From positions 18,724,001 to 18,788,000 of the forward strand of contig JANJGN010000008.1 of assembly GCA_026770705.1 (NCBI GenBank): a stretch of 64,000 nucleotides of DNA. The letters run 5' to 3'. Of the stretch, positions 3,131 through 61,949 are shown in pieces (the stretch's first letter is position 1; every line of letters begins with the position of its first letter). The notes beneath the pieces are model-generated. The model saw only the letters and a list, made by a program, of their open reading frames with translations, had not been told where the DNA came from and ran no database searches. The translations under genes and the position numbers were made by a program. Source of the DNA: Isurus oxyrinchus (Eukaryota).

Positions 3131-3409
3131 GTAGGTTATCTTACCGCAATCATAATTCTATTTAAATGATTTATCAATATGCCTTTGAATAACAGCAACT
3201 TGCTCCACAATTTTACATCATTTTTGATCTTTGAATTTAGACTGAACAAGGACATCAAGTATTTATTGATAAGGTTTCATCTGCTTTTGCATAAAACTCA
3301 GTGGATTTCTTGCAACACAATGTCTGTCAATTACCATTTTACACTTTTGAAGCTTTCCTGTCTGTTGCTTGATCAATGTAACAGTTTCCTTCTATGTTTT
3401 TGTTATATC

Positions 3410-3830: not shown

Positions 3831-3949
3831 ACTAGGTACAGAAGGACACATTGTGGTAACAACTCAATTTGGTGTTTCTGGTTTTCCAAGTGACCCTTTG
3901 GTTCCGTTTGAGGTTTTCATTGTCGAAAAAAAACATGTTCTATTTATTT

Positions 3950-16041: not shown

Positions 16042-16464
16042 TTGAAATGTTCTGTGCTCTGTGTACATTGAGAATAAATTAAAAATAGGATTTTTTCCCC
16101 ATGATTTATACTGTGACAATATTTTTCAACCACGCCCTCTTCTGGTGAGGGTCCATGACATATCCATTGTGGTGTGAGTTTCCCCAGATACCATCCAAAC
16201 ACTGAAACTTTGATCTGACTTCAGGTTTTCCAGCAGGTTCAGAGGTCAAGGTCAGCAGTTTTGCTCTGCCTCACTTACACTGATGGAGCAGAACCGAGAG
16301 TCCATGTTATTCTACTGTTCAAATGCACGTGTCAGTCATCTGGTCTAACTCTTCAATGCAGCAAGGAACAAGTGCTGATAATCGGTAGAGGCACAGTTGG
16401 AACATAATCATGGGATTTTACCTGCCACTATTGACAATAAATCTAATTGATCTGTTTTTCACAG

Positions 16465-16734
16465 TTGAGACAAGTCCACAGTGGTCTGTGGTGGGCAATG
16501 ATGTTACTCTCAGCTGCACAATCTCCAAACTCTCAGATACAGTCAGTCTTCACTGGAAACAGAGAGACTCATCTCAGCAGAACAAGAGGAAAACTGATCA
16601 GGTCCAACTAAATGACACAGTCTATCTGATAGTCAAACATGTTGCAGTAGAGGATGGGAAATTTTATGAGTGTGAAGTGAAGGAAAATGGATTCATCATT
16701 CTCACAGGAAAGGCACGTTTTTCAGTGGATAAAA
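16465..16734 (+). pseudogene. Ig domain 2 exon (C2-type), open frame
   Basis: TTTTTCACAG| VETSPQWSVVGNDVTLSCTISKLSDTVSLHWKQ...YLIVKHVAVEDGKFYECEVKENG...FSVDK+A|GTAAGC; phase 1/1; C-W-DxGxYxC pattern. Confidence 0.92.
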
Positions 16735-17779
16735 GTAAGCACAGTTTTCAGACAGTTGATATTAAACAGCTACTAATATATATTTTTATTCATTCAAGGG
16801 ATGTGGGTGTCACTGGCTAGGCCAGTATTTATTGTCCACTCCTAATTGCTCTTGAGAAGGTGGGGGTAAGCTGCCAATATCAAATGGTTATTTATAATGC
16901 GATGAAAGTATAAGAATTATCATAGTATTTTTCGGGTTTATTATGAAGTAGATTCATGGGAGTAAGTATAGTTGGGTGTGTGTGATTTAATTACATTTGG
17001 AGTCAAATAGACTAAGTTTGAAATCATCAAAAGAAGCTAGGTGCTTGACATGCTCATGAGTAAACATGGATGCTGGCTTAGCATGTAAGATGTGAAGGGA
17101 ATTTGCATTTTTTTAGATGAATGAAGAGATTTGGATATCAAAGGGATCTTAGTCTGTTTACAACTTGCCAGATAAGCAAGGCTAAGGGAAGGTATTTATT
17201 TTTCCCAAACGGTTCTCACAACGTATTTATTGGCAACATGAAATTTTTTTATTATGAGGAAGATTCCGTTTCAAAGACAAAGGAAACAATAGAATTTACA
17301 TATTAAAAAGAGAGAAACATGTATGAAGGAGAATGAAAGGCTGTGTGTCAAAAGGCCATGTAGAATCTAACAGGAGTGTGTGAAATAGCCTTAATGAAGT
17401 GTCCAGCATTTGTGCATAAGGCTGCTATATAATGAAACTAAAGTTTGGGAAATGTCATTTGGAATTCTACTGTCCAATGTATTGTGTTAACTTGCTGAGT
17501 TTGTTTTAAATCTAAAATATATTTTGAGCAATTGCTTTAAAGGGGGTATAATTGGGAGTCAGGTTAATTAAGAATTTTAGGAGCTATTAAAAGAGTAAGT
17601 AATTTTAGTTTTATGTATGTGTTTGAAATCTTTTATATTTTGATAACAAATATGTTATTTTTATTAGGATTAACATACTATGATTAAAACTAAAATGTTT
17701 TCAGAAACAGCATTTTGAAGAAAGAAAAAAAAAATCCTCCACAAAGTGGAAATCAGGATTGTTGCAAATTTTCAGGGAG

Positions 17780-25400: not shown

Positions 25401-28400
25401 CTCGATCCCAATTATGTGGTAGTCTTGATTATGTGATCTAATGATAGTCTTTAAAGTCTGATGCCACCTTTCTAAGGCACCTTGTGATTCAGGATGATAG
25501 GCTGACAACCTACATTGCTTTATTCCTGGGCTGTTCATTACTTCTTTAAAAAGCTGTGACATGAAATTCAAACCCTGATCCGGCTGTATTCCTTTTGGTA
25601 ATCTATATCTAGTAAAGAATTGGGCTACCTCCTCCACAATCACCTTTGTTGTTATTTTCTTTAAAGGTATTGCTTCAGGAAATTTCATGGACACATTCAT
25701 GACTGTCAGTAAGTACTGATTCCTGCTTTTAGTCTAAGGGATATAATCAATGAGGACCTTGTTAAATGTTCCTCAAATGCTAAAATTGGACTTACAAGTG
25801 CAGGCTTAATGACTGCTTGTGGTTTTCCTATCTGCTAACATGTTTGACAGAATTTGACCACACCTTTGTGTAGTCCAGGTCAATAGAAATGCTTCTGTAT
25901 CTAAGTTTGAGTTTTCCTAATTCCCAAATGTCCAGCCATTGGAATTGCATGAGGCAGCCTCAAAATTTCATTCTGGTACCCACATGTTACTTGGTGCACT
26001 ATCGCCCACTTTTCATCTGCTGGATTATGAGGTCGTCTCCATTTCCTCATTAACACATTGTTCTCAATGTAATAACACTCTGGGATGTATTCTGCTCTTG
26101 TTTCTGGATAAGCTGTCTCATATAACTGCTTCAAGTCTGAATCCTCCTGCTGTAATTCCATGATCTTCACTAAACTAAACACCTCAACACCTCATTCTCG
26201 TTAATCTTCTCCTCCTGAGTCACCTTTTCAATGATTGATCCAACCAACTGAATTTCAATGTCCTCCCCTGGCTTTTAAATTCTTCCACATCCTGTTTAAA
26301 CTCATACATTTGTGATCTCGTCGCCATACCATCGGGAAATGATCCAGGATGCTCTTTCTGTAAAATCTCGGATGATTGTGTCTCAACAGGCTGCTCCACT
26401 ACAGTAGGCATAGTCAATATCCCCTGCAATGGGCAATTTCTCTACTACCCCAACAATCACTCCCTCCTGATTTCAAATCACTTTTTAAATTTACCTCACA
26501 CATTAAAATAAGTTTGACTTCACCTTGGATTCCCTTCATTCATATTTTTCCTGCTATAACTCTTCTGGACAACAAATTGCACTAACCTATATCATTAGAT
26601 TAGTTATCATAGCTCGTCCCAGTATCCCTGAAAATTTTGACATCCTTTCCTGTTCTTCCCTGTATTTTCCCTTCACATATATAATCTTTAAGCAACTCTG
26701 CAACCTGTCCTTCAGATCTCCTTTGGGTAAGTTGTGAACACATTCCCACTTCTCTAGCTACCACTGACTCTTCCTGCTCCACGTATACAAGAACCAATTG
26801 TTTTTCTTGCCTCTGGTTCTGAGAGGCCACAGTACTCTTACTTCTAGAACATTTCTGAGTTCCTACCACCACAATAGTTTTCCTATTTAACCTCCAACAA
26901 CTTGATCCTTTATCTCCAGCCTTATTACAATGGTAACATATCAGTTACCTTCCTTTAACTCTACTTTCCACCTTTCCATCTTTAATAGACTGGCACCCTT
27001 CAGCTTGATCCTTGTTACTAACACTTAAACCATCACTAGGTTTTCTATATCTCCAATGTCCTTCCTGATTTCCACATGACCCTTTTCCTACACTCAAACA
27101 TTTGTGCAAAATATCATCTGTGTCAGCTAAAACAGCAGCTTCCCTGATCTTTTTGCTTTGTTTTTCACCGAAATATGTCTTAATGTTTAGCAGAATGCCA
27201 TTTCTAAATTCTTCCATAATCATAACCACTCTCACATTTTCAAATGTCTTATCTAATTTTAATGCGCTGAACCATTGACGTCAGGTAATTTATTTTTCTC
27301 TTGCAAACTCGACATAAGTCTGATGAGTTATTTTCCTTAAAGTTCTAAACTTCCACTGATAAGCTTCAGGGACAAGCTCACACACATTTACTGTTGTGTT
27401 CTTTACTATCTGGTAACCTGCAGACTGTTCCTCTGATAGGCTTGCGTGCACATTCATTGCAGTACCTGACAAAACACTTTGTAACATGATAACCCAAGCA
27501 CCTCTTGGCCAATTCAATTTCATAGCTATCTTTTCAAATGAGGTGAAATATATTTCAACTCCACCCTCTGTAAACTTCGGCACTTACCAGAGATTTCTAG
27601 TTCAATCAAATTCCTCAAAGTAATCAAAGTCACCATCTGAATCAATATCAATCCTTTCTTCCTTTATTCTAAGTTTCACTTTAGGCAATTCATACCGTCT
27701 GGCTTCTTTCACTTCTGAAGCTCTCTATTCCTTTCCCTCTTTCTTTCCTCAAATGCTAACTTCTCCCTGAAGTTCAAGTTGAAGTTTATTCATTTGCAAC
27801 TGAAGTGTTAATACCTCTAGCTGTGTCACACTAGTTTCAGGTATCACTTCCTCCAACTTTAAAATATCAACCTTTTGAAATTCCAATTTTATCTCTATCT
27901 GCACTTTAAATGCTAATTCTTTCAACTGAGTTTTAGTCAGAGATTTCAAATACTCCACAATAACATTTTCCATTCCCAGAAAGTTGTAGCAATTGGAAAA
28001 GCCATTTTGCAGTCCAACACTTTAAAATCCCTCAACACAAAACCCCTGAGTTCAGCACTCTTCTTGTACTTATATCCTCGGAATCACAAACTCCAACCCA
28101 ATCAAGGAATTTTAATGATCCCAGATGAGCCCCCAAATTTAATATGACTACAGCCAGTTAATTGCTGCACAAACAAAATCCCAGAGGGAAACTTGGCATA
28201 TGGTCCATAGCCTTTTTTCTGTATTCTGAAAACAAGGAGAAGATGTTCTGATCTCAGCAGTAAGAAGTCCAGTAGCACTGTTGGGATTTTAAAGATTAAA
28301 ATTAAAAGTTTTATTAACAATAATAGAAGAAAACTGAAACACACAAGATTACAGTTGCACAATTATGGTTAGTCTTACAAAACATTCCCCCAAAAAGACT

Positions 28401-30995: not shown

Positions 30996-33900
30996 CATGT
31001 GGTGACAATTGTTCTCTGCCGTGCTGTGGTTGGTGCATATGACAAGTTTGTCTCTGTGAATTTGTCAATGTCCTTTTTAACACCTGGCCGACAAACTGAT
31101 TCTCTGGCAAGGTGTGTTGTTCATTCTGCACCCATGTTTCCGATGATTAGGTGACTTACCATGGTTTGGCACATTGCCTGAGGTATGAGGACCAGCTTGA
31201 ATTTGAATATGATGCTTCTGGAGATGCCCAGTTCATTTCCTGCAGTGCCAAAATTATCAGATACTTTCTTGGATATCCGTGATGTGATCAGGCCAACCTG
31301 CGAAAATAACTTTCTTCAGCTGCTGAAGCTGTTGGTCTTCTTGGGTGGCCTGTTGTATCATTTCAGTTTGACCTTGTTCAAAATGGCTCCATGAGCATGT
31401 GTAGATTGTTGTTATATTTCCCATTAGTCTTACCAAGGACTGTGATGTCATCAGTGATGCACAGGCACCTAGGCAAGTCTCTGTGATGTGGTCCATGTGT
31501 TTTTCGAACATGTCTTGACTCACCGAGAGCCCAAACTGCAAGCACAAGAAGCAATACTGTCCAAAAGCAACATGAAAAATGGTGAGCTCGTGTGATGCTA
31601 GTGCCAGATAGATGGATTCTTGGCATCCAATTTGGGGAAGCATTGGGCTCCCGCAGACTTGGGAATCAGTCCCTCAAGTGTGGGGATTTTATATCACATT
31701 GAGTGTCTTGGGTCTCGTCATAAACATAGTGAAGCATCCCTCTTAAGACCATCGTGTCCAACGCTTTCCACTTGCCTTGGATATGGATGCTGCTCTGAGG
31801 TGGGTCAATGCTGGTTTGAGCATCATCCTTTAGGTGCAGCACTGTGTCACCTCTGAAGTCTCCGATGATGTGGTAGTGATCTGGGTACGTGGTTGTCAGG
31901 TCCATTATGCAATCGATTCATCATTTGGTGTTTTCCTGTACGGTGATAGTGTCCTCTGCCATGATGTGGACAGTAAGCATGTTCATGTCACTGTACACTG
32001 GCAGACCAAGATTTCCGGGCCACTGGTTTCCACAACCTAAAAAATCTCCGGTGTCCACCTGGGTCTTCGATATTGGCATTGAATTGTGATGGTGAAAAGC
32101 AGTGGATGTCAGACCCATTGTAGACGGTAAGTCTGTCAGATGTTGACTGGGTTGAGCTGTGCCATTGTCCCATTTATGTGGTGTTGGGAACATGCAAAGG
32201 TAAGATATTGGCCTTAGCACCTGTTTTGATTTTTGCTCGAATAGTATACTGTCCACAGTGTTGTGAATATTTAACGTTTTCAGATGCAAATACTTCAACT
32301 CATCTCACTCCATTCACATGATAAGTGAGGTTGACAATGTGTAGAGTTTGGCCTGGATCTGTACACTGTGGTGTATTGGGGAAGTCTTGCACTTCATTGA
32401 CATGTTTACATTTTACAGGACAAGCGCTGGAACTGTGATTGGTGTTGGATTTATGTGGAGTTTTTCTTTGTTGTGAGTTTTGTACCTTGGCAAGTCTGGT
32501 TTATTGCATTTGTGACAGATTTTTGTCCAACGCCCTCTGGTGAAACAGAGTTTTCACATGTCAGAAAATGCTGAACATTGCCTGGGTAAGTGTGTAAGAC
32601 CACCCTGCTGTCAGGCTTTGGGTGTCTTTGATGTTTTTGTTATCTTGGCAATGGTAGATTTGTGATTGAGGGCTTGAAGCTTCTGTCCGCCAGCCACTAA
32701 TGCCTCAAATTTTCTACCTTCATCCAGAAGTGCACCTATTGAGTAACCTCTGGCTTTGTCTATTAGAGTTTTCCTGAAGTTCTTCATGGGCATTGAAGCG
32801 ATGACAAGCTCCGTCACTCTCTCCACAAGCTCATCGGCATTGAAGTCACATTCGACTCCTTTGCTCCAGCACCTGTTTATGAATTGATCGATGCTTTCAC
32901 TTGGTTGTTGTTGGTACGACATGAAATCTAGCTGGTGAATTCTAAAGTTAACCTCCAGTTGATTTTCGATGATTTTGAAGATTTTATCGGGGTCTTCATC
33001 AGATAGACCTAATGAATTTACACACATTAGCCCCATAAACCCCTCATTGCCAAGAGCAATTAGTAATTTGGCAGCTTTTCTCTCTTGTTTCTGTACCTGC
33101 TGGTCCAGAAGGTGTAAGTAAATCTTCTGTCTGAAGAGTTGAAATTCTGCAAGAAGACCTCCTGGTTGCCAGTTCAAAATCAAATCTCTATTCACCATCG
33201 TGATGCTCTTGGTTATTAGCTGCACTGGGTGCTACCCAAATGTAGTTGCTGAGTGCTGTGTCTCTTTGGAAGCTGCAACAATGTATTCCTGTGGGCTCAT
33301 AACAGTGTGCTGCTTAGGGAAAAAGCTTGCTTCTTCTTTTGCGGTATGTTTTAAAAGTAGCACTTTAGGTGCTTGGCTTAGCCTGGCTTGAAATAAGGAG
33401 AAAGAATTTTAAGTTGCAGATCTTTAGATTACAAAGATTGTGCCTTGCTTCTTGTTTCTGGTGCAGGATTGAAACTGCCATTTTATTCTACCCTCCCCGA
33501 TTGTTGGGGCAGGAAAGCTGGTTTTGGCACCGAAACAAAAGAAACAAACTGACGGATCCGACCGAGAGTTGTGCTGAGCTCTGCCGAGAGCCATTGGAAC
33601 CTGCATCTCTGGCCCCCTCAGCCTGGGACACATTTGTTTCTTTCTAACAATCCCGACATGCTAGCCTTCACGGTTAAGGTGAGTGGCTTACAAATAGCTG
33701 ACCCTGATGTTCATACAAAGCGAAGGCTGCTGCCCAAACCATTGAGCTCGGAGTGAAGTCTTCACTCGCTTTTGAACCCTGGCGTTTGTTGGAACTAGTG
33801 TCTGTGCCTAATGTCAGATGCCATGTTCTTGTGGCTGAAGAACTGGACCTTGTTTTTATTTTTAAACCGAGGCACCTGGACTGAGGTTCCCTGTGAGTGA

Positions 33901-43476: not shown

Positions 43477-46400
43477 ATCAGTGATACCGTTGAGGCTGAT
43501 AAACTGCTGAAACTCAGCAGTCGTAAATGCCATGCCGTTCTCAGAAACCATTATCTGATAGTCCGTGAATGGCAAAACTCTGACCTAGTTTCTCAATTGT
43601 AGCACCTGACGCTGTTCACTTCACCTCTTAAACGTCCAACCATTTTGAATGGGCATCGACAAGGAACAGAAATATTATTCCCAGGAAAGGCCCAATGTAG
43701 TCAATGTGTAAACGCCCCCAGGGTCTACCTAGCCACTCCCATGGATGTAATGGAGCTTTCACTGGCAACATTTGCAGGTGCTGACATTGAACACAGTGCT
43801 TTACTAAACTCTCTATTTCACAATCCATCCCAGGCCACCAGAAAACGCTGTGTGCTATGGTCTTCATTCGGGAAATTCCTGGGTCTGAACTGTATAGTTC
43901 AATTAAAAGTATCTCCCCACCCTTTGGAGGAACTATCTCTCACGCACCCCACAATAGGATGTCAAACTGATTGACTATTTCATGTATTCTGTTGAAGCAT
44001 GGCTTCTTTGACCAACCATGTTGCACTTGTTCTCGTATTTGAGATAGGACTAGGTCCTGACTTGTCCAGTCTCTGAGCTGTTGAGCTCATACCAGCAAGA
44101 AATCTCAGATATTTAACAGTTAAACAAGTTCCTGTGGAACTGGGAATTGCTCCTCATTTTCTTGTAAAGGTAAAAGACTAAGGGTATCGGCCCTTGCGAT
44201 TTGATTGTCAGGCCTATGTAGGAAACTGTATTCATACGCTGCCAGAATTAAGGTCCATCATTGTATTCTTTCTGAGGCTGTGGGTGGCATCCCTTTGGCC
44301 TCACTAAACAAACCTAACAATGGTTTGAGGTTTGAAATGACTAAAATGCCAGCCATGTATGTACTGGTGAAGTTTCTTGATACCAAAGTTGATGGTCTAT
44401 CTGTAAGTATCCCTTATCCACTGTGGTGACGGTACTTGATACATAACCTGTTGGATGTTTCTTGCCGTCATATATCCAAAGTGATACCACTGCTCCCACT
44501 CCATAGGGAGATGCATCACATGTCAGCACAAATTCTTTCTCTTGGTCATAATGCACTCGTAGATTGCACGAGTGCAACAATTGCTTCACCTTTCTGAAAG
44601 ATTCTTTCTGGGGCTCCTCTGAAGAGCAATGTTAGTTCTTTATGAGTGGGGATTGCAGTGGGCCAGCACAGTAGATAAATCGGATAAGAACCATCCTTAA
44701 TGGTTAATCATTCATGGGAATGATTTGAATTCTGAGGCGTTCTTTGGCGCAGGTGCCTGTCACTTTCACCTCAACCGGGTGGAGACCCTGTGAATCTACT
44801 CGGTGACCAAATAGATTACCCACCTTGGTTGCAACGTGCAATTTTCTTTCAAGCGCACACTTTAATCTCGCCCTTTTTTTGACTTCATTATTAGCCGGAC
44901 TGCTCTCAGATACAAGTTTAACTTGCCTAACCTCAATGCCGAGTCTCCCAAAATGTCATTATCTGTCTGCTTTTTGGAAAATTCTGCGACTTGCTCTTCC
45001 AAAGCCTCTTTGGCTTCATTTAGCTGATTCTTCAACTCTTCCATCTCCTTTTTGTATTTGTTTGCTGCCTCCTGGAAAATTGAACATTGTTGTGTCTTCT
45101 CTGCCAACTCATTCTTCAGTTTGTTCAGAGAGGTGCTGAATTCTTTCTGTTTCTCTTCATACTTTCCCAGAGGTACAAACTTTGACCTGAGGGAATCTTG
45201 TAGTGTGTGAAAGTCTTTTAACAGCTTTTCGTTTTCCCTTCAAATGTTGCTCACCTCATTTCGAACTCTGTCATCAAACAGGGTTACTTTGAGGTTGTTC
45301 TTCCAGGTTTTGGTTTTAGACAGCCTGCATTTCTTCAGGTTGTTGAGTCCTTACACACTCCTTCGTCAAAACAGGAACACTTCCAGCTTCCTTTTGGAAT
45401 CTCAGTGGCCAATCACGGTTGATTTCCCTTCGCCAATTTCACGGTAGAGGGCTTGGTCCTCTGCCTCTCAATACCAACACTGGTCGCTTTGCTGATTGGC
45501 TTCCATAATTGACAGCTACACTGCTTATGCCTTTTACTTGCCTGTCTTGACCTGTGCAAGTTCTTAGTTTGGTGGCTGCTCACTCCAAACTTAACTGATG
45601 TTCACTATTATTCAAATATCTGAAAGTATGTTCCCCGATTTTTCATGTCCACTTCCATTTTAATAGATTTGCCATTTACTTTCACTGTGAGAAATATTGG
45701 CTCTCTCTTTCCAACTTAAAGATTAAACAACAAGGAATTGTCAGAATTTGTTCTTTCAGGCTCTTCCACATTGTAGATTTCATTGGGCCTCTTCTTTTGT
45801 TTCCAAGTAGCTTGAATCTTTCCTTGCACTGCCTTATGATATGTCTATTTCTCTGAAATTAGTAGCATTTGAATTTTTTAAACTGCCAATTGCTAAAAGA
45901 CTTATTGTTTCCACCTCTATTAAAATTATTCTTCAATTTCGCTCCTCAGTTATTTTTCTTTATTCTTCAGCTAGCGGGGACTGTTTCCGGCTTCCTAGCA
46001 GATCCTTGCCTTTTTGCGCCACATTCAGTTGAGGTTTCCCATCCAATGAGGAGGACATTGCCATTTTGCATACCCTTTGTTCATTTTGAATCTCTTAAAG
46101 TGCTTTCCATGGCCAGTGCTTTCTCTAGCACCTTCTTGAAATGTGGATTCACTTCGGACAAAAATCTTTTCTGAATAGCAGCCTCTTTCACACCTCACAC
46201 TAAATGGTCTCTGAGCATATCGTTCAGAGTCGTAGTGAAATCACAATGTTCTGTTAGCAGCTTCAAATTTCCCAGATAGCATGCAATTGTCTCTCCTGGG
46301 GCTGTATTTCGCAAATTCAACCTAAACCTATACATTGTGACTGCGAGCTTGTGTTGAAAATGCTCCTTCACAAGGTTCACCAATTCATCAAAATTCTTCT

Positions 46401-47165
46401 AATCTGGGGCACTGGATGACTTCAAACTGTGAATAAAGCCATAGGTTTTGTTCCCACAAATACTCAAGAGGATCACTCGCTTCATATCTTCCCCTGTAAT
46501 CTCGATCACTTGATAAAAGAATGTAAGGCATTCTATATATTGAGACCAATCATCTCTGGCTGGTTCAAAAGGATCAATTGTCCCAAACTGTGGCATTTTG
46601 TGGGAGGATAATTTCTTCAATTCTAATGGAGATTGCTAATTACAATCACTGTATGAGGTACAGTGCCAATTTCTTTCCAACTTAATTTCTTCTGTTTAAT
46701 CCTGTTTTATCCTTGTCACCAGTTTGTTGTAGGGTGGCCTACAAGTTATATCTTTGGTAACAGAGTTGATCTGCAGACACTTCTTGGGTGGACATATGAA
46801 GTTTATTTACAATAAACTCCATAGCAACTACACGGGTGCTTGCAGGTCCAACTCTATCTCTACACTGAATGCTGAGGTACCTGCACTACTCTCCTATTGG
46901 TTACTACAGATCACGTGCTCTTTCTTACAAGTATTATTCTTAAAGATACACTGCACACTAGATAAAAGCATAATTACTATATTCCTCCCCTTCAACTCAG
47001 CTATACATATAATATTTACCAGTACATATTTTTCAAGACAAAATAATATTTACACTGGGTAAGGAACTTACAATTTCAGACTTTCAGGTGGCTTCCTGGT
47101 ATGTGTGGAACATCGCAGCTCCACAACTTCAGATTCTTTGTCAGGTTATCTCCCTTCTGGAGTTG
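43477..47165 (-). mobile_element. Non-autonomous Gypsy element copy A (3'-truncated)
   Basis: LTR 46725-46981, PBS TGGTGACAAGGAT, gag 46195-46620, protease, RNase H (LTCDASPYGVGAV), integrase (LHPWEWLGRPWGRLHIDY). Confidence 0.9.
44938..45340 (-). other. Captured coiled-coil coding segment (UACA-like) inside Gypsy copy A
   Basis: ENEKLLKDFHTLQDSLRSKFVPLGKYEEKQKEFSTSLNKLKNELAEKTQQCSIFQEAANKYKKEMEELKNQL lies between the protease and the RT C-terminus. Confidence 0.7.
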
Positions 47166-47295
47166 TGTATATAAAATATATGTATAAATAAAGTACATAT
47201 AAAATAACATCCCAAATGTGACCCCTTTTATCCCCATCACCAAATATTTTGATATTGATAAGTTCCCATCTTGACCTACAATGTGTTTTCTATTT

Positions 47296-47516
47296 TGAGC
47301 CAATTTTCAGTCTCAGCTTGAATGTGAACAGCTCTGATCATGTCACAATCCAGAGCTGCAAAGAAAGCGGAAGTGCCTGTTCTGTGGTTTCACAAGAGAA
47401 AACGTCAATGAATTAATTGTGCAGGGTAAGGACTGAGAGTCTCAGTTTGTTGTATATCTCTGTCCTGGCAGCTTTGCTGCTCAGTCTCAGTGTTTCTGCA
47501 AGTCTCTTCCCACAAG
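47296..47516 (+). promoter_or_regulatory. Promoter plus first exon of Ig-receptor paralog 2
   Basis: Ets GCGGAAGTG 47367-75, RUNX TGTGGTT 47383-89, CRE-half AACGTCA 47401-07; frame TESLSLLYISVLAALLLSLSVSASLFPQ+G|GTAAGC. Confidence 0.65.
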
Positions 47517-47684
47517 GTAAGCAATCTAAATGTGGTCATAATTCTTTTTAATGTATTGATTTAAATGTGGTTTGAGTAATTGAACACATTGCTCAAAGAT
47601 CTGCTACTTTCTGAATGTTTACTCTTTCAAATCAGCTCTTCTGCTGCACCCTGTTCCTCATGAGACTAAACAAGGACATCAAGT

Positions 47685-47778
47685 CAGAAACAGAATTACC
47701 TGGAAAAACTCAGCAGGTCTGGCAGCATCGGCGGAGAAGAAAAGAGTTGACGTTTCGAGTCATCATGACCCTTCGACA
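47685..47778 (-). mobile_element. Short Penelope-terminus insertion with a 10-bp TSD
   Basis: GACATCAAGT at 47675-84 and 47779-88; empty site in copy B (~60494) and in paralog 1 (~3251). Confidence 0.9.
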
Positions 47779-48539
47779 GACATCAAGTGCCTGTTTATAT
47801 GGTTTCATCTTTTTCAGAAAACTCCAAGAAGGTTTCTTACAACTGAATGAGTGCCATCTGCCATTTTACACATTTTAATCTCTCCTACTTGTTGCCTGGC
47901 CAACGTAATTTTTTGGCTATAACTAGTCTTGGTTTCTCTCGTTTGCCATGTGACGTTCTGGTTCTGTTTGAGGTTTTGATTGGCCTTCAAACTTCTGTTG
48001 CCAATTCAATTCTTTAACTAATCCATGATGTCCAATTGAATTGAAAATGTTTCGTAGAAAAAAAGAGAAGCTAAAGTCACAAATGCAACGTAACAGAACA
48101 GATGAATCATGATGGACAAACTTGATTGGTTGTATTTAACATTGATGTGGCAGCTACCCCTAATTTTAAGTCAGTTCCTCCAGTGAATATGATAGAGGAA
48201 AAAGCAGAAACTCTAATTGACCTAAGGATATGTCAACCTGTTACCTTCTAATTCAGCTTGGAAAGCACGGCAATGACATCTTGCAGCTTCATAATGTCAA
48301 AGTTTCCCTTTCTCAGCACAGTGCTTGTGAGGTGGTACAATCCTCCCGATCTTACAAACCACCCTCAGACCTACTGTGAGTAGCACCATATCAGATACAT
48401 TATCCTTCAAGTATGTAGTATGGAAATATATAATCAGTCTCTTTAAAATGTTGGAAAATAATGTGATTGATGGGCTTGTCTCATGGGTCCTGACTCTGGT
48501 CACGTGACTCTCCCGAAGCAGTAGATGATTATCTTCCTG

Positions 48540-48617
48540 TCACAGTTTTAGATGAACCACATTGGGGTCTTAGGCAGATTGTTGAAGGAAGTGGCTGTGG
48601 TTCATCTAAAACTGTGA
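48540..48617. repeat. Perfect 22-bp inverted repeat inside a degenerate ~270-bp fold-back
   Basis: TCACAGTTTTAGATGAACCACA (48540-61) / TGTGGTTCATCTAAAACTGTGA (48596-617); copy at 61271-61348 has one mismatch. Confidence 0.9.
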
Positions 48618-49218
48618 TACCAAGAAAACCATTTACTTCATTGTGCTACTCACATGATCAAAGCCAGGGCAATTAGACAAACAAATGACAATTTTGTCCA
48701 ACATTTGCAGATCTGGAAATAAATAATCTAACTTGTCTTCCAGATTTGGTGTGAAACATTTCATTTGTAATTTCACATTTAAAATCAATTGTCACACATT
48801 TTAGTTCTAATGTTCAAAATATGAATTGTTGGTCTGGACTCGTTTGTGGCCCTTTCAGATCAGAGTCAGAAGACGGGGGTTAAGAAGCCTTTCCAATCAG
48901 CAGTTAGAATGCAATTGCAGTAGGGGTCTGGATATCTAATCTCAACTGATTCTTCAGTCCATTCTGATGAAAGGTCATTTTGATCTCAAACATAAACTCT
49001 CTTTCTCTCCACAGATGCTGCCTGACCTGCTGAGAATGTCCAGTAGTTCTTGCTTTCATTTCAGATTTCCAGCAGCCACTGTATTTTGCTTTTGTGTATT
49101 TGATTTTTCATTTTTTTTGGAGGTGTCGTCATTTGAATGAGATGTTAATCTGATGCACTGTGGCTGCATGTTTTACAGAAGGCCAGGTTAGTGTGAGGCT
49201 AGTCCCATTCCAAGTTAT

Positions 49219-49533: not shown

Positions 49534-51715
49534 TCATAGAGTCATAGAGGTCTACAGATGACCCTGAGGCCCAACGAGTCTGCACCAGTCAAAAAAGTAC
49601 GTAACCATTCTAATCCCATTTTCCAGTCCTAGACCCATAGCCTTTTATGCCATTTCATCGTAAGCACATATCCAAATACTCCTTAAATGTGCTGAGGGTA
49701 TCTGCCTCTACCACCCTTTCAGGCAGAGAGTTCCCTATCTATGCCACTGATAATTTTATAAACCTCAATCATGTCCCCTCTCAATCTCCTCTGCACCAGG
49801 GAAAATAACCCCAGGCTATCCAATCTCTCCTCATAACTAAAATCCTCCAGCCCAGGCAACATCCTGGTAAATCTCCTCTGCACTCTCTCTGGTGCAAGCA
49901 CACGTTTCCCAAAATGCGGATTAGAGAACTGCGTGCAATACTCCAGCTGTGGCCTAACCAGCGTTTTATACAGTTCCAGCATAATCTCTCTGCTCTTATA
50001 TTCTATGCCTTGGCTAATAAGAGCAAGTATCCCATATGCCACCTTAATCGCCTTAGCTACCTCACCCGCTACCTTCGGGGATTGGTGGAAAACAAGGTCC
50101 CTCTGATTCTCGGTACTTCCCAGGGTCCTACCATTCACCGTGTATTCCCGTGCCTTGTTTGTCCTACCCAAGTGCATTACCTGTCACTTATCTGGATTAA
50201 ATTCCATTTGCCACTGATCAGCCCATATGGCCAGTCCGTCTATATCCTCCTGTAATCTAAGGCTATCCTCCTCACTATTTACCCCCCTCCAATTTTTGTA
50301 TCATCCATGAAATAACTGACCAACCCTCCCACATTCAAGTCTAAATCATTTATATATACCACACACAGCAGGGGACCCAACACTAATCCCGGTGAACCCA
50401 ACTGGACACAGGCATCCAGTCACAAAAACACCCCTCGACCATAACCGTCTGCTTCCTGCCACTCAGCCAATTCTGGATCCAATTTGCCAAATTGCCTTCG
50501 ATCCCATGGGCTTTTACCTTTGTTATCAGTCTCCCATGCGGGACCTTATCAAAAACCTTTTTGAAGTCTAAGTAGACTATATCAAATGCATTGCCCTCAT
50601 CTACACCTCCTCTTCGAAAAATTCAATCAAATTGATCAGACATGACCTCCACTTAACAAAACCACGCTGACTGTCTTTGATTAATCCCTGCCTCTCCATG
50701 TGTAGATTAATTCTGTCCCTCAGAATTGCTTCCAATAGATTCCCCACCACTGAGGTTAGACTGACTGGCCTGTAGTTCCCTGGTTTATCCCTTTTTCCCT
50801 TCTTGAATAATGGTACCACACTGGCTGTCCTCCAGTTCTGTGGCACCTCTCCTGTGGCCACAGAGGTATTGAATATTATTGCCAGCGCCCCTGCTATCTC
50901 CTCCCTTGCCTCACTCAACAGCCTGGGATACATTTCATCCAGGCTTGGAGATTTATCTACTTTTAAACCTGCCTGACCACTTGGAACCTCTTCCCTTTCT
51001 ATGCTAATTTCTTTAGCTATATCACAATCCTAATGCTTGATTTGCATACCCATGTTGTCCCTCTCACTTGTGAACACTGACACAACGTATTCATTCCGAA
51101 CCCTACCTACATCTTCAGGCTCCACACACAGATTACTACTATGGTCCTTAATAAGCCCTACTCTTACCCTAGTTATCCTCTTACTCTTAATGTACTTGTA
51201 AAATAACTTTGGATTTTCCTTTATGTTACCTGCCTGTGTTCCTTCATGTCCCCTTTTTGCTCTCCTAATTTCCTTTTCACATTATATACACATTATATAC
51301 ACCTTGAGGGCTTCCACTGTTTTCAGCCCTCGGTATCTACCATAAGGCTCCCTTTTTCTCTTTATCCAATCCTGCATATCCTTCAACATTCAGAGTTCCC
51401 TGGATTTGCTGGTCCCACCCTTTGTCTTTACTGAAATGTGTTGGCCCTGTTTCCTTCTTGAATGAGTCCCTCTGCTCCGATGCAGATTTACCTAAAAGTA
51501 GCTGCTCCCAGTCCAATCTGGCCAAATCATATCTGATCTTATTAAAATTGGCCTTCTCCCAGTTTAGAACTCTGATTTCTTGTCCATCCTTACCCTTTTT
51601 CATAACAACATTGAATCTAATGTAGTTATGATCACTATCTGCAAAATGCTCCCCCACTGATACCTCCACCACTTACCCAGCTTCATTTCCTAAAATTAAG
51701 CCCAGGACCTCTCTA
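49534..51715 (-). mobile_element. CR1 LINE, 5'-truncated
   Basis: ORFs 49719-50177, 50601-50933 and 51337-51672 (endonuclease C-terminus GEHFADSDHN through RT); (CTCTATGA)n tail at 49534. Confidence 0.92.
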
Positions 51716-53300: not shown

Positions 53301-55230
53301 TTTTTTCCATCTAACATTTCCTGAGTAACTATCCGGATAAGTAAGTCGGAACTGTCCGAAGTCTCCTACTCTAACACAGTGTTGGAGACATTTTCAGAGG
53401 TTCCCTGGGAGCAGGGGAATTGCCCACCAGAACATCACACTTCTTGGACAATACATAAAGTGTCCTTGCTTTGCAACTTCATTGGATTGCATAGCGCAGC
53501 TTCCAGGTTACATCCAGTCTCTGCCGATCTGGAAATTGGACAATCTGGGCCTATATTTGAATATAACGGTTAGTCAAAGGTGATTTGGATCCTTACAAAT
53601 GGATGTGGGCAATAGTGTAAATGAAATAAGGAAATGGTAGAATTGCTGCATCAAGTCTTCACAGTAGTAAAATAGGGTAACGGATCTGACATTCGATGGA
53701 AACTAATAATAAATCAAGGATTGGAACTGAATAATATTAACAGAAGCAAGAATGCAGTATTAGAAATAACAATGGCACTAAAGACTGACAAATGCCCAGG
53801 ACCTGATGATTTCCACACTTGGGTTTTAGAGGAAAGATGAGGGGATTTTGCAAAAGCTTCAGCCATGATCTTCCAAAGATCTCTCGTTTCAAGAATTTCC
53901 CTTTAGGTTGGAAATCCTAAATGTAACTCTGTTATTTTTGAATGTGGAGAGAGAGAAAAACCATGAAATTGTAGATGTGATTAACTTAAGTTATGGAGAA
54001 GTTATAGAAATCTCTAATGAAGGGGAGGTTGACTGGACATTTAGAGAAAGTTGTCCTGATTAAAGAGAATCCACAAGGATTTGTGAAAAGTCAGTCGTTT
54101 CCAACAAAACTGTGTTTTTTGAGTAAGTAACTAAATTGTGATTCAGGAATATCTATGGGTTGTAGTTTTTTCTTTCTACAAAACAGTTTGCAGAGTTTTG
54201 AACCATGGAACAAACAACGCTAAATAAAGATTTCTGGAACATATAAATAAAAATACTTTTATTTAAACATCAGCAAGAGATTGCACATAAGCCTATAGAG
54301 ATCTAAATCTTTATTCAAAGATCATGCTGACTTTTACCAAAAATCCCATACATACGAATACCAGTGAGTAGTGAGTTCAGCAGTGATTCGACATAGCTGT
54401 TAAACTAGCAACTGACCAAGTTACTTCTTTGACTACAGCAGTGAGTAGCTTTACGGTTCACCTATTATACTTTTTCCTTGGACTGGGCTTGCATGTTAAA
54501 CTGACAGGACCTTAGGTCCTGTAAAAGTTCTGCTTAATACAAAATGTACAATAGTATGTTGAGTTCTTTGTCTAAAACCATGGAGTAAATGCCCACCCTC
54601 ACACATAATTCCCAAGCAATATGAGTTGTTTCACAGATTCTCTCATCTACCTGAAGATGCCATATTGGCCTCAAAATATTAACTCTGTTTCTCTCTCTCC
54701 AAAGATGCTGTCAGACTTGCTGGGTTTTTCCAGCATTTTCTATTCTTATCTCAGATTTCCAGCATCTGCAGTCTCTGCATTTACTCTCATGCACCTTATC
54801 AGGCTTAGGAATGTCTTGTACCAAGTACACTCTCAGTTGTTAACTCTTACCCAAAGACTTCCTTATCTGTGAGAAGCAGCTTGGATCATTCAGCAGGTTT
54901 TATTTTCCTTTGTAGAAGTTGTTTGGCCTTGCATTGCAGATAAAATTGGGTCATTTGTTAAGTTTGCTCAGCTTACAACAAAACTCTATATTCCTGTGGC
55001 AGTAATTTATATCAACATCTGGAAAGCATCAACATCTCCATAAGAGACTGTGAGCCAAAGTGAAAGCTTATGGTATTAATGAAAAATGATTGCTTAGACG
55101 ATTGTTTTATAAATTTTTGCCCTTGAGATTTAAGTTCTTCTGAATGTGGCCATACTGTTCCTGATTTACTGCCTCTCATCTTCTGTTATCTGGAGTTTGT
55201 CTGATTAACTGTGAGTTCTGCTATTTGAGA

Positions 55231-58200
55231 TCCTTCAGGGTGGCCAAGTTGTGTTATTAGTAATAGAGTTGATCTGCAGACACTTCATGGGTGGAAACAT
55301 TAATTTTTTCACAATATACTCAGCAGCAACTACACATGTGCTTTCAACTCCAACTCTATCTCTACACTGACTGCTGAGGTACCCGGACAACCCTTCTATT
55401 AGTTATCACCGACCATGTGCTCTTCCTTACAAGTGTTATTCTAAAAGGTACATTACACACTAAATAAATCCATTTTTACTATATTCCTCTTCCTCTAACT
55501 CAGCTATACATAATATATTTGCAAGTAGATATTTTCAAGTCAACTTAATATTATCACTGGGTAAGGAACTTACAAATTCAGTCTTTTAGCCGCTTTCCTG
55601 GTATGTGTGGAATGTCGTAGCTCTACAATTTAAAATTCTTTGTCAGGTACCTCCTTTTCTGGAGTTGCCTGAACATCAGATGCATCAGTAGGCACCTGCA
55701 GTTCTGTATCCTCAACTCTTACAGGAACATCAGATGTGTCAGCCCTGGGTTGAGTGTCCTCGGCAGAAACGCAGACCCGGTCGTGGTCATTGGTGGAACC
55801 ATATCTTCATGAGTTATTTATCTTCCTTAAATGGTCGACATGTTTATGGATGATCTGGCCTTCCATTTCTACACAGTAAGATGGAGCTCCAGTCACTGCA
55901 CTCATTTCACCCGGTAATCTTTTTTGTCCTTCCCCAAAGTTCTTCACGTATACCAGCTCTCCCATGGTGATTTCCCTCTCACGACTACTCAGCCATGTCT
56001 AATTTCCTGGCATCCTTTCTACCTTCCCTTCTAAATTCGGCATTATTAAGCCAAATCTCGTCCTGAGATGGTGTTTCAACAATAACTCCGCAGGTGTGGC
56101 ACCTGTTGATGTGTGAGGGGTAGTCTTGTAGTAAAATAGAAAGCGTGCTAGCTTGGTTGCCAAGGAATCACGAGTTAACTTTTTCATGCCTGTCTTGAGC
56201 ATTTGAACCGCCCTTTCGGCCAGTCCATTTGAGCAAGGGTGATACGGTGCAGTTTTCACATATCAGTGATACTGTTGAGGCTGATAAACCGCTGAAACTC
56301 AGCAGTCGTAAATGCCATGCCGTTCTCAGAAACCATTATCTGGTAGTCCGTGAATGGCGAAACTCTGACCTAGTTTCTCAATTGTAGCACCTGACGCTGT
56401 TCACTTCACCTCTTATACGTCCAAGCGTTTTGAATGGGCATCAACAAGGAACAGAAATATGTTCCCAGGAAAGGCCCAATGTAGTCAATGTGTAAACGCC
56501 CCCAGGGTCTACCTAGCCACTCCCATGGGTGTAACGGAGCTTTCACTGGCAACATTTGCAGGTGCTGACATTGAACACAGTGCTTTACTAAACTCTCTAT
56601 TTCACAATCCATCCCAGGCCATCAGAAAAAGCTGTGTGCTATGGTCTTCATTTGGGAAATTCCTGGGTCTGAACTGTGGAGTTCAATTAAAAGTGGCTCC
56701 CCACCCTTTGGAGGAACTATCTCTCATGCACACCACAATAGGATGTCATCCTGATGTCTTCTGTTGAAGCATGGCTTCATTTCATGAGATACAGGCTCCT
56801 TTGACCAACCATGTTGCACTTGTTCTCATATTTGAGTTAGGACTAGGTCCCGATTTGTCCAGTCTCTGAACTGTCGAGCACTTACCAGCAAAATATCTAA
56901 GAAATTTAACAGTACAACTATTTGCTGTGGAACTCGGAATTGCTCCTCATTTTCTTGTAAAGGAAAAAGACTAAGGGTATCGGCCCTTGCGATTTGATTG
57001 CCAGGCCTATGTAGGAAAGTGTATTCATATGCTGCCAGAATTAAGCTCCATCATTGTATTCTTGCTGAGGCTGTGGGTGACATCTCTTTTGCCACATTAA
57101 ACAAACCTAACAATGGTTTGTGGTTTGAAATATATGTAAAATGCCGGCCATGTACATACTGGTGAAATTTCTTGGCACCAAAGACTGCCCTTTTTCTATC
57201 AATGGGTATCCCTTTTCCACTGTGGTGAGGGTGCTTGATACATAACCTGTTGGATGTTTCTTGCCATCATCCATCTAATGTGATACCACTGCTCCCACTC
57301 CATAGGGAGATGCATCACATGTCAGCACAAATTCTTTCGCCTGGTCATATTGCACTCATAGATTGGACGAGCGCAACAATTTCTTCACCTTTATGTAGGA
57401 TTCTTTCTGGGGCACATCTCAAGAACAATGTTAGTTCTTTATGAGTGGGGATTGCAGTGGGCCAGCACAGTAGAAAAATTACATAAGAACCAACCTTAAT
57501 AGTCAATCATTCATGGGAATAATTTGATTTCTGAGGCGTTCTTTGGCGCAGGTGCCTGTCATAGGGCTTTCACTTTTACCTCAACCGGGTGGAGACCCTG
57601 TGAATCTACCCGGTGACCCAAATAGATTACCCCCCTTGGTTGCAATGTGCACTTTTCTTTCAAGCGCACACTTTAATCTCGCCCTTTTTTTGACTTCGCT
57701 ATTGGTTGGACTTCTCTCAGATGCAAGTTTAACTTGCCTAAACTCAATAGCCGAGTCTCCCAAAATGTCATTATCTGTCTGCTTTTTGGAAAATTCTGCG
57801 ACTTGCTCTTCCAAAGCCTCTTTGGCTTCATTTAGCTGATTCTTCAACTCTTCCATCTCCTTTTTGTATTTGTTTGCTGCCTCCTGGAAAATTGAACATT
57901 GTTGTGTCTTCTCTGCCAACTCATTCTTCAGTTTGTTCAGAGAGGTGCTGAATTCTTTCTGTTTCTCTTCATACTTTCCCAGAGGTACAAACTTTGACCT
58001 GAGGGAATCTTGTAGTGTGTGAAAGTCTTTTAACAGCTTTTCGTTTTCCCTTCAAAGGTTGCTCACATCATTTCGAACTCTGTCATCAAACAGGGTCTGT
58101 TTGAATTACTTCAGCTGTTCTTCCAGGTTTTGGTTTTAGACAGCCTGCATTTCTTCAGGTTGTTGAGTCCTTACACACTCCTTCGTCAAAACAGGAACAC

Positions 58201-59984
58201 TTCCAGCTTCCTTTTGGAATCTCAGTGGCCAATCACGGTTGATTTCCCTTCGACAATTTCACCATAGAGGGTTTGGTCCTCTGCCTCTCAATACCAACAC
58301 TGGTTGCTTTGTCGATTGGCTTCCATAATTGACAGTTACACTGCTTATGCCTTTTACTTGCCTGTCTTGACCTGTGCAAGTTCTTAGTTTGGTGGCTGCT
58401 CACTCCAAACTTAACTGATGTTCACTATTATTCAAATATCTGAAAGTATGTTCCCCGATTTTTCCTGTCCACTTCCATTTTAACAGATTTGCCATTTACT
58501 TTCGTTGTGAGAAATATTGCCTCTCTCTTTCCAATTTTCAGATTAAACAATGAGGAATTATCAGAATTTGTTCTTTCAGACTTTTCCACATTGTAGATTT
58601 CATTGGGCCTCTTCTTTTGTTTCCAAGTAGCTTGAATCTTTCCTTGCACTGCCTCATGATATGTCCATTTCTCTGACATTAGTAGCATTTGAATTTTTTA
58701 AACTGCCAATTGCTAAAAGACTTATTGTTTCCACCTCTATTAAAATTATTCTCCAATTTTGCTCCTCAGTTATTTTTCTTTATTCTTCAGCTAGCGGGGA
58801 CTGTTTCTGGCTTCCTAGCAGAGCCTTGCCTTTTTGCGCCACATTCAGTTGAGGTTTCCCATCCAATGTGGAAGACAATGCCATTTTGCATAACCTTTGT
58901 TGCTTGTGAATGTCTTAAAGTGCTTTCCATGGCCAGTGCTTTCTCTAGCACCTTCTTGAAATATGGATTCACTTCGGACAAAAATCTTTTCTGAATAGCA
59001 GCTTCTTTTACACCTCATACTAAACGGTCTCTGAGCATATTGTTCAGAGTCGTAGTGAACTCACAATGTTCTGTTAGCAGCTTCAAATTTCCCAGATAGC
59101 ATGCAATTGTCTCTCCTGGGGCTGTATTTCGCAAATTCAACCTAAATCTGTACATCATAACTGCGGGCTTGTGTTGAAAATGCCCCTTCACAAGGTTCAC
59201 CAATTCATCAAAGTTCTTCTAATCTGGGGCACTGGATGCCTTCAAACTGTGAATGAAATCATAGGTTTTGTTCCCACAAATACTCAAGACGATTAGTCGC
59301 TTCTTCTCTTCCCCTGTAATCTCTTTCACTTGATAAAAGAATGTAAGGCGTTCTATATATTGAGACCAATCATCTCTGGCTGGTTCAAAAGGATCAATTC
59401 TCCCAAACTGTGGCATTTTGTGGGAGCATAACTTCTTCAATTCTAACGGAGATTGCTAATTACAATCACTGGGTGAGGTACAGTGCCAATTTCTTTCTAA
59501 CTTGATTTCTTCTGTTTAATCCTGTTTTATCCTTGTCACCAGTTTGTTGTAGGGTGGCCTACAAGTTATATCTTTGGTAACAGAGTTGATCTGCAGACAC
59601 TTCTTGGATGGACATATTAAGTTTATTTACAATATACTCCATAGCAACTACACGTGTGCTTACTGCTCCAATCTATCTCTACACTAACTGATGAGGTACC
59701 TGCACTACCCTCCTATTGGTTACTGCAAATCATGTGATCTTCCTTACAAATATTATTCTTAAAGGTACATTACACACTGGATAAAAGCATAATTACTATA
59801 TTCCTCCCCTTCAACTCAGCTATACATATAATATTTACAAGAACATATTTTTCAAGACAAAATAATATTTACACTGGGTAAGCAACTTACAATTTCAGAC
59901 TTTCAGGTGACTTCCTGGTCCATGTGGAACATCGCAGCTCCACAACTTCAGATTCTTTGTCAGGTTATCTCCCTTCTGGAGTTG
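55231..59984 (-). mobile_element. Non-autonomous Gypsy element copy B with both LTRs
   Basis: 3' LTR ~55231-55483 with PPT at 55484; 5' LTR 59545-59800; PBS 59527-59541; gag, PRO (VKMEVD), RH, INT (TAPYHPCSNGLAERAVQ). Confidence 0.9.
57750..58165 (-). other. Captured coiled-coil coding segment (UACA-like) inside Gypsy copy B
   Basis: Same peptide as copy A; in frame with the upstream protease C-terminus. Confidence 0.7.
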
Positions 59985-60114
59985 TATATGTTAAATATAT
60001 ATATAATATAAGTATATATAAAATAACATCCCAAATGTGACCCCTTTTATCCCCATTACCAAATATTTTGATATTGATAAGTTCCCACTTTGATCTACAA
60101 TGTGTTTTCTATTA

Positions 60115-60335
60115 TGAGCCAATTTTCAGTCTCAGCTTGAATGTGAACAGCTCTGATCATGTCACAATCCAGAGCTGCAAAGAAAGCGGAAGTGCCTGTT
60201 CTGTGGTTTCACAAGAGAAAACGTCAATGAATTAATTGTGCAGGGTAAGGACTGAGAGTCTCAGTTTGTTGTATATCTCTGTCCTGGCAGCTTTGCTGCT
60301 CAGTCTCAGTGTTTCTGCAAGTCTCTTCCCACAAG
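60115..60335 (+). promoter_or_regulatory. Promoter plus first exon of Ig-receptor paralog 3
   Basis: Identical to 47296-47516; Ets 60186-94, RUNX 60202-08, donor G|GTAAGC at 60335/36. Confidence 0.65.
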
Positions 60336-61949
60336 GTAAGCAATCTAAATGTGGTCATAATTCTTCTTAATGTATTGATTTAGATGTGGTTTGAGTAATT
60401 GAATGCATTGCTCAAAGATCTGCTACTTTCTGAATGTTTACTCTTTCAAATCAGCTCTTCTGCTGCACCCTGTTCCTCATGAGACTAAACAAGGACATCA
60501 AGTGTCTGTTTAAATGGTTTCATCTTTTTCAGAAAACTCCAAGGAGGTTTCTTACAAATGAATGAATGAATGAGTGCCATCTGCCATTTTACACATTTTA
60601 ATCTCTCCTGCTTGTTGCCTGGCCAATGTAAGTTTTTTGGCTATAACTAGTTTTCGTTTCTCTAGTTTGCCATGTGATGTTCTGGTTCTGCTTGAGGTTT
60701 TGATTGGCCTTCAAACTGCTGTTGCCAATTCAATTCTTTAACTAATCCATGATGTCCAATTGAATTGAAAATGTCTCGTAGAAAAAAGAGAAGCTACAGT
60801 CACAAATGCAACGTAACAGAACAGATGAATCGTATGGACAAACTTGATTGGTTGTCTTTAACATGGGTGTGGCAGCTACCCCTAATTTTAAGTCAGATCC
60901 TCCAGTGAATATGATAGAGGAAAAAGCAGAAACTCTAAATGACGTAAGAATCTATCAACCTGTTACCTTCTAATTCAGCTTGGAAAGCAGGGCAATGACA
61001 TCTTGCAGCTTCATAATGTCAAAGTTTCCCTTTCTCAGCACAGTGCTTGTGATGTGGTACAATCCTCCCAATCTTACAAATCACTCTCAGACCTACTGTG
61101 AGTAGCACCATATCAGATACATTATCCTTCAAGTATGTAGTATGGAAATATATAATCAGGACGATTTGTCTCTTTAAAATGTTGGAAAATAATGTAATTG
61201 ATGGGCTTGTCTCACGTTTCCTGATTCTGGCCACGTGACTCTCCCGAAGCAGTAGATGATTATCTTCCTGTCACAGTTTTATATGAACCACATTGGGGAC
61301 TTAGGCAGATTGTTGAAGGATGTGGCTGTGGTTCATCTAAAACTGTGATACCAAGAAAACCATTTACTTCATTGTGCTGCTCACATGATCAAAGCCAGGG
61401 CAATTAGACAAACAAATGACAATTATGCCCAACATTTACAGACTTGGAAATAAATAATCTAACTTGTGTTCCAGAGTTGGTATGATATCATGTATATGTA
61501 ATTCCACATTTAAAAATCACTTTGCCAAACATTACAGTTGAATTATTCAAAATATGAAGTGTTGGTCTCGACTCATTTGTGGCCCTTTCTGATCAGTCAG
61601 AAGAATGTGAATCCCACTCCAGGGGTCTGGATATCTAATCTCGGCTGATTCTTCAGACCATTCTGATGAAAGGTCATCTCAAACTGAAACGTAAACTCTC
61701 TTTCTTTCCACAGATGCTGCCTGACCTGCTGAGTGTGTCCAGAATCTTTTGTTTTTATTTCAGATTTTCAGCATCCACAGTATTTTACTTTTGTATATTT
61801 AATATTCCATTTTATTTGGAGGTGACATCATTCGAATGAGATGTTAATCTGATGCACTTTAGCTGCATGCTTCACAGGAGGCCCAGGTTAGTGTGAGACT
61901 AGTCCCACTCTAAGTTATTTGGCTCTTCTTAAAGCCAACATTTATGTCT

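Follow-up and report, generated by a model that had tools for sequence, protein, structure and literature searches.

The 4.56-kb LTR element at 55237-59800 on the minus strand of the window (the whole 64,000-nt stretch of Isurus oxyrinchus DNA that was analysed) is a non-autonomous Gypsy derivative, neither an autonomous element nor a domesticated gene, and carries a piece of the coiled coil of the host gene UACA where the RT core would be. The full explanation that we consider probable is that the RT core of this family (family A) was replaced by a coil obtained second-hand from another LTR family (family B), and that A spread by means of the RT and integrase of a sister family. The passage of the coil through two families is proposed with high confidence, while its retention as a protein is only somewhat favoured.

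Layout of the element and origin of the insert

The features of the window element are given in Table 1. Compared with the full-length sturgeon Gypsy polyprotein P0044 (K02A2.6-like), the window spans residues 1-402 and 615 onward; the ~215 missing residues (~400-614) include the YLDD at 581, in agreement with the original prediction that a YxDD region is absent. The gag region opens a single gag-pol-type frame, and family A has the LTRs (TG..CA), the PBS- and PPT-like motifs, the target duplications and the PR-RT-RNase H-integrase domain order of Ty3/Gypsy elements. The RT core with YxDD and the in-frame pol that characterise an autonomous Gypsy element were found in 0/70 A loci, and three RT-core matches fall in neighbouring elements. 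A target-site duplication was sought for the window copy and none was found. A domesticated host gene was rejected as an interpretation, as the window copy has stops and frameshifts and the best-scoring copies examined, among which no intact one was seen, decay at a Ka/Ks of 0.92.

Table 1 Features of the family A element and of related sequence in the window.
Feature	Position	Strand	Remarks
Extra 3' internal end and polypurine tract preceding the 5' LTR	59801..59984	-	Likely remnant of a tandem copy
5' LTR	59551..59800	-	~250 bp; 82.5% identity to 3' LTR
Primer-binding-site-like TGG motif	59531..59544	-	Immediately past the 5' LTR
Decayed gag, capsid and zinc-knuckle region	58560..59416	-	From a tblastn search with P0044 (sturgeon Gypsy)
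Decayed protease and post-protease linker	58184..58560	-	
UACA piece 1	57841..58183	-	Host exon L031 ~2930-3281; in the protease frame
UACA piece 2	57737..57847	-	Host exon L031 ~3723-3834
~65-nt tail	57672..57736	-	Also in family B; missing from the UACA exon
RT thumb and RNase H remnant	57030..57670	-	Frame differs from that of the coil; missing in subfamily A2
Decayed integrase region: zinc-binding domain, core, C-terminus	55570..57030	-	
Polypurine tract and 3' LTR	55237..55496	-	LTR itself 55237-55483
Second partial copy of the window element	43477..47684	-	Within a local segmental duplication, 93% identity including flank

When L004, a natural copy of the insert without stops, was used as the query, five proteins were matched among 1.84 billion representatives, namely stingray UACA, arowana UACA, two basking shark ORFs annotated as 'uncharacterized' and one unnamed ORF. 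The best non-element match was UACA of the stingray Hemitrygon (E 1.7e-15), and it was through the stingray UACA that the host UACA exon (L031) was found on another contig (C25), where 911 codons are open; over the part searched, the exon shares 99% identity with UACA of the white shark. The window insert matches this exon of the same genome over 236/332 nt (71%, E 2e-41). The resemblance to UACA that had been proposed is thus borne out, with a host gene matched at both the protein and the nucleotide level. A first large protein search had missed UACA, its sole match being a white shark gene model. When the coil was used as the query, Pfam gave generic coiled-coil matches only, all under the cut-off, the PDB search gave 0 matches and the Atlas search returned unrelated coils with low recognition. 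As the UACA piece lies inside one exon, an RNA origin is unreadable from splicing.

The stretch that takes the place of the RT core (~58183-57672) lies within the interval 57600-58440 of the original prediction. As had been described there, the protease C-terminus (TKLRTCTGQ...NCRREINRDWP) runs into the coiled-coil peptide in one minus-strand frame, with three stops between the linker and RENEK..., and the 5' junction is colinear codon-for-codon with RT-bearing relatives. The final ~30 protease codons and the linker are unlike those of the RT-bearing helper family described below and travel together with the coil. Short A-rich words, which may be due to chance, are shared at this old junction between the linker and UACA. 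Where the two UACA pieces meet, at a short repeat of TGAAGAA, 450 nt have been deleted in frame, a deletion that is also present in family B. The proposed return to the RT C-terminus holds at the DNA level but not for the reading frame, as the frame of IYLGHRVDS... in the window differs from that of the coil. In subfamily A1, the coil enters a different RT-thumb frame and reaches a stop within 17 codons in 20/29 RT-thumb-bearing copies; the remaining 3' ends are in the RT frame (3/29), in the third frame (4/29) or without an anchor (2/29). As the return to the RT C-terminus is not in frame, the product is Gag-protease-coil-basic tail-stop and not a repaired pol.

Two families with UACA and a probable RT-bearing helper

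Searches for family A scored 40 of 4,999 candidates at the DNA level, with 86-96% identity apart from the window itself, and 150 of 12,667 candidates at the protein level. The insert is flanked by protease-side and pol-side sequence in 30/30 loci from the DNA search. A 20-mer that spans the 5' junction has 241 exact occurrences, compared with 0 in the reversed control; the junction is therefore not confined to one locus, and the mobilised non-autonomous family that had been predicted exists. This 20-mer is intact in 15/66 sampled A copies, which by scaling gives ~1,060 copies; as well-preserved copies are over-represented in the sample, this is a minimum. Family A has hundreds of copies, likely over a thousand. 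Among 68 distinct loci, the RT thumb and RNase H are kept in 31 (subfamily A1) and both deleted in 33 (subfamily A2), with four otherwise rearranged. In the 19 copies with both LTRs, the two LTRs have 81-91% identity (median 85.5%), and nine of these copies are bordered by exact target duplications of 4-5 bp; the LTR divergence and the target duplications indicate that the A copies are independent, old insertions. The protease triad is most often DTG (12/29 in A1, 12/33 in A2 and 17/30 in the helper).

With an RT query, 4/31 relatives were at 76-82% to the window, and a YxDD-anchored pattern yielded one RT-bearing locus at 67-71%. When one of the relatives from the RT query was itself used as the query, 40 of 5,149 candidates were scored. 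All but one of 32 RT-bearing loci match gag or pol of the window element, most of them also the LTR, at roughly 73-90%. A1 and this RT-bearing family differ only from protease codon ~80 on, with a net distance of ~0 for capsid, RNase H and integrase, and the protease Ks is 0.145 within A1 and 0.140 within the RT-bearing family, as for families of the same age. The copy number of the latter is ~560, from 90 exact matches scaled by 5/31, so that by this rough scaling A is roughly twice as numerous. The RT-bearing family that shares the LTRs of A is likely its helper, and the shared LTRs and the recombination suggest mobilisation in trans. None of the RT-bearing loci examined exceeds ~70% to the protease end and linker of A over most of its length, and for want of a close match to this end the Gypsy element that first received the coil was not found. 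A post-hoc subset of eight A2 copies differs from the rest with a Ks of 0.22 in capsid, 0.06-0.12 in integrase and 0.012 in the coil; the same cassette in different backbones indicates repeated recombination.

The UACA search also gave many decayed, dispersed pieces from outside the span present in A, and these define family B. UACA was present in 18/18 fetched B loci (span 2284-3834, 75-90%), 0/18 of which match A outside the insert, and direct repeats of 110-310 bp, 3.1-4.9 kb apart, flank 11 of them. Upstream of UACA, B contains a gag-like domain that, in L038, shares a natural open frame of 232 aa with UACA. It was identified from the Atlas look-alikes DUF7041, DUF1759 and DUF4939, which we take to be linked to gag, and gave no Pfam match. 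Downstream of UACA lies a piece of TPR (Pfam PF25481, above the cut-off, E 2e-9). Over an uninterrupted ~700 nt, the B copies match consecutive host TPR exons, which span ~17 kb on contig C16, with six exon starts after an AG acceptor and five ends at a GT donor. The joining of TPR exons at their AG/GT edges demonstrates that spliced RNA was captured by B. Family B is thus a gag-like start fused to UACA and at least six spliced TPR exons; no TPR was found in family A. The B lineages have lost large and differing parts of the coil, and some lack most of TPR. In the search for an autonomous parent of B, which was not found, 15/19 gag-like matches were followed by UACA and 0/19 by pol within 1.5 kb, and 93 Gypsy polyproteins gave no match inside B elements.

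The insert of A is nested in B. The jump from 3281 to 3723 seen in A is also present in 9/18 B loci, and two derived characters, the ~65-nt tail of non-UACA sequence and a junction Cys codon, are common to A and a B sublineage. In a host-rooted tree, 62/62 A copies form one star-like clade within B that adjoins L041 and L045 on a stem of 0.27; the FastTree support is low for the A stem (0.59) and 1.0 for A plus L041. A source of the ~65-nt tail was found neither in ~24 kb around the UACA exon nor in a 200-kb TPR stretch.

The timing of the capture was compared using 28/37 B copies that were mapped to the host frame. At lamnid-derived UACA sites, B is ancestral at 16/19, derived at none and unclear at three, and at the changes common to the host and two carcharhiniforms, as against Heterodontus and Heptranchias, it is derived at 8/9. 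At carcharhiniform-only sites six are ancestral, one is derived and two are unclear. Based on these substitutions, the capture would fall near the base of the Lamniformes, whose split was Jurassic, or just before it; the lamnids were the one lamniform family whose UACA was in the set, which limits the placing to this resolution.

Probable selection on the coil and proposed history of the cassette

Ka/Ks was estimated by a transition-aware method on distances between natural copies, with an internal decay baseline; Nei-Gojobori ratios judged by a threshold of 0.75 had proved too lenient and were set aside. The baseline is the value of 0.92 for the coil within A, where no constraint was detected, at low power. 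On the path from B to A, Ka/Ks is 0.45 with the nearest eight B copies (95% 0.25-0.81), with the baseline reached in 1.1% of 1,000 bootstraps, and the inclusion of all 12 B copies changes it little. From host to B the ratio is 1.0 (0.5-2.3), and between two A subsets the coil has Ka close to Ks (0.013 vs 0.012) on a very short branch. The dN/dS analysis that had been suggested for the insert therefore gives a divided answer, with constraint on the B-to-A path and none detected within A or from host to B. The protease stretch that divides A1 from the helper has a Ka/Ks of 0.33. The low Ka/Ks in gag and integrase of A may be inherited from the helper by recombination, because the integrase, which is out of frame in A, also has a low Ka/Ks.

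The commonest stop in the coil is found in at most 21% of copies of either A subfamily, and 23/27 hydrophobic host positions are still hydrophobic in most A copies. Under neutrality, a stop-free stem is only mildly unlikely (P 0.04-0.17, 113 codons). In a comparison of 56 loci, the deletions present in at least two B copies (102, 126, 210, 282, 450 and 453 nt) are in frame in 6/6 cases and the private ones (106, 467, 500 and 755 nt) in 0/4. The second carrier of the 210-nt deletion was taken from the separate 18-locus comparison of B, and the count excludes two pairs that the aligner had split and that add up to 450, as well as a 101-nt version of the 102 deletion. The 5-9-mer repeats of UACA are themselves 55-81% in frame, which alone yields six in-frame deletions out of six with a probability of 0.03-0.28. 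The evidence overall is moderate: the stem to A was likely under amino-acid constraint, which is unproven for the other parts of the history.

The proposed history begins in an early lamniform or a near ancestor, where B would have taken pieces of host mRNA by template switching and placed behind its gag-like N-terminus ~1.55 kb of the UACA exon and at least six TPR exons, spliced as observed for TPR and presumably also for UACA. In-frame deletions, as seen in the copies, shortened the coil in B lineages. A ~510-nt piece of the B sublineage with which A shares its derived characters would then have taken the place of the RT in a Gypsy element, probably by a further template switch, to give a Gag-protease-coil frame ending in a short basic tail. 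The distances suggest that the cassette of protease end, linker and coil evolved on a long stem under moderate purifying selection, and that it later passed by recombination to two or more helper backbones, followed by a burst of amplification. Family A would have provided its own Gag and protease, the coil being a soluble, probably self-associating C-terminal extension. We infer that the capture mechanism was template switching between co-packaged RNAs.

Direct capture of UACA mRNA by the Gypsy element through two template switches, as originally proposed, would fit the short words common to the linker and UACA at the 5' junction, as well as the pattern described in the available text of Tan et al. 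(2016, PMC5131818). The same 450-nt deletion, 3' end and non-UACA tail would, however, have to arise twice; the insert of A nests in B and has the deletion, the junction codon and the tail of B, and this part of the original prediction is abandoned as very improbable. UACA might also have entered B at the DNA level, by ectopic recombination, repair of a break or read-through of an insertion close by. The captured span (2284-3834 of L031) is indeed all within one exon and contains no splice junction, but TPR is present in its spliced form in the same family, and both ends of the UACA piece are in coding sequence, in sense orientation and in frame with the gag-like start (the 232-aa frame), which makes such entry unlikely.

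A reading that shares the same two-step history, and which we regard as a real possibility, is that the coil is a passenger, for which any stop-free soluble stuffer would serve, kept open only for translation of the single gag-protease frame or for escape from RNA decay. It would account for the absence of detected constraint within A and from host to B, the in-frame deletions are partly expected from the UACA repeats, and B lineages drop big and different parts of the coil and in some cases most of TPR. The Ka/Ks from B to A, however, corresponds to amino-acid constraint beyond the avoidance of stops, the hydrophobic positions are largely retained in A, and both of the unrelated captures, UACA and TPR, are of coiled coils in sense orientation. 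Beyond retention of the coil as a protein, the host coils may have been co-opted as accessory Gag-fused domains, forming a cassette portable between unrelated families and helper backbones that helped RT-less elements to outnumber their helper, for example through Gag oligomerising or TPR docking unspliced RNA at the nuclear pore. This extension is speculative and rather doubtful. TPR belongs to the nuclear basket, and it is a guess from this location that the piece in B might act in RNA export.

Relation to known captures

Gag-host fusions in place of pol are found in the acutely transforming retroviruses; to our knowledge, these gag-onc fusions are selected via host cell growth and are not amplified as germline families. 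The single-ORF Gypsy elements of fish, such as sturgeon P0044, resemble A in their Gag-PR-RT-RH-IN order, in 63% identity over the RT thumb and RNase H and in their short LTRs. Family A differs from them in that the RT fingers and palm (residues ~400-614) are swapped for a host coil and the downstream pol is out of frame or deleted.

LTR-mediated retrocopies, with ORF replacement and microhomology, have been reported in zebrafish (5/7 young retrocopies), chicken, mouse and human, according to the available text of Tan et al. (2016, PMC5131818), and the statement that such transduction is rarely described was too strong. In the retrocopies described there, an internal ORF between LTRs is partly replaced by host mRNA, and microsimilarity is found at the switch points; in A, host sequence likewise takes the place of part of the internal ORF, and the spliced form is seen for TPR in B. 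Multi-gene chimeras and further rounds as non-autonomous elements are also part of that description (PMC5131818). The retrocopies in that text are young loci with one or few insertion sites, whereas the shark family A has ~1,000 or more copies, and the relay between unrelated LTR families, the long stem with a Ka/Ks below the decay baseline and the presence of the cassette in several backbones set the shark system apart from what is described there (PMC5131818).

Maize Bs1, as it appears in the consulted part of PMC13317346, is an LTR element with several host-gene segments shuffled into a chimeric ORF, as may also be the case in family B; in B, two host genes are present and the gag-like start is in the UACA frame in one natural open frame. 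Bs1 differs in being a plant element with enzyme and ATPase fragments that is reported there to be transcribed and translated (PMC13317346), while the sharks have a vertebrate Gypsy system with coiled coils, in which all copies seen are decayed and onward transfer to a second family took place. The same part of that source describes BARE-2 and Veju, in which template switching between co-packaged RNAs gave chimeric helper-dependent elements as proposed for A, with BARE-2 having exchanged element sequence only (PMC13317346).

The literature search, with subscription journals and Repbase/Dfam outside its scope, gave no account of these shark families and none that pairs UACA with such elements; the families may be catalogued in Repbase/Dfam without their host origin being noted. 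The mechanism of capture is already known, and it is the relay, the scale and the constraint that were not found in print. Host-gene capture by LTR elements of animals is known mostly from young, low-copy loci, and the shark case provides the long-term sequel, with the serial capture of two coiled-coil genes, the passing of a piece to a second family, signs of constraint and amplification. The many dated copies make it possible to test if the element, rather than the host, profits from captured host domains.

Pieces of these elements are also contained in shark gene models, which is a warning for annotation. Basking shark P0004 is 73% identical to A, compared with 55% to B and 58% to the host, basking shark P0005 is of the B type (67%), and the white shark protein P0002 includes a gag-plus-coil piece.

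Coding ends and rearrangement in the two families

In 19 of the 33 copies of A2, the subfamily of family A that lacks the RT thumb and RNase H (e.g. L025, L061, L072 and L091), the coil frame runs into a lysine/arginine-rich tail and a stop, an ending that follows the loss of these two domains. The frame continues into integrase in three of the 33 copies, and the remainder had no anchor (7/33) or fell into other categories (4/33). A basic tail also terminates the basking shark protein P0004.

Family B, the older UACA- and TPR-containing LTR family, includes two variants, L035 and L042, whose final UACA block, together with the tail, is positioned differently relative to the main UACA block; this displacement is shuffling inside the family. 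The B sublineage nearest family A (L045, L049 and others) has only the last TPR exon piece, and most of the TPR exon run is retained in L038, L042 and L157-L162.

Local duplication and occurrence in a second species

Window positions 43477-48873 and 56262-61604 are 92-93% identical, representing a local segmental duplication that spans the element and its flank. A third, inverted copy of the segment (L002, G000:C8:18857745-18861403) lies approximately 78 kb away, and in the distance tests all three copies were entered as a single insertion.

Matching of sequencing runs X5 and X6 to window 54200-61000 revealed family A at high depth in a second species. Contigs from these runs span the 3′ junction with flanks approximately 96% identical, hinting at an insertion common to both species.

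Other features of the window

The immunoglobulin-like frame is perhaps part of an Ig-superfamily gene at this locus. The retroelement fragments comprise non-LTR RT-like and additional Gypsy gag/integrase-like frames.

Additional window features, all recognised by eye
Feature	Position	Strand
Open frame resembling immunoglobulin-domain exon (VTLSC...FYECEV)	16389-16820	+
Retroelement fragment	269-1291	+
Retroelement fragment	10426-11377	
Retroelement fragment	25278-25733	
Retroelement fragment	32611-33231	
Retroelement fragment	49719-51029
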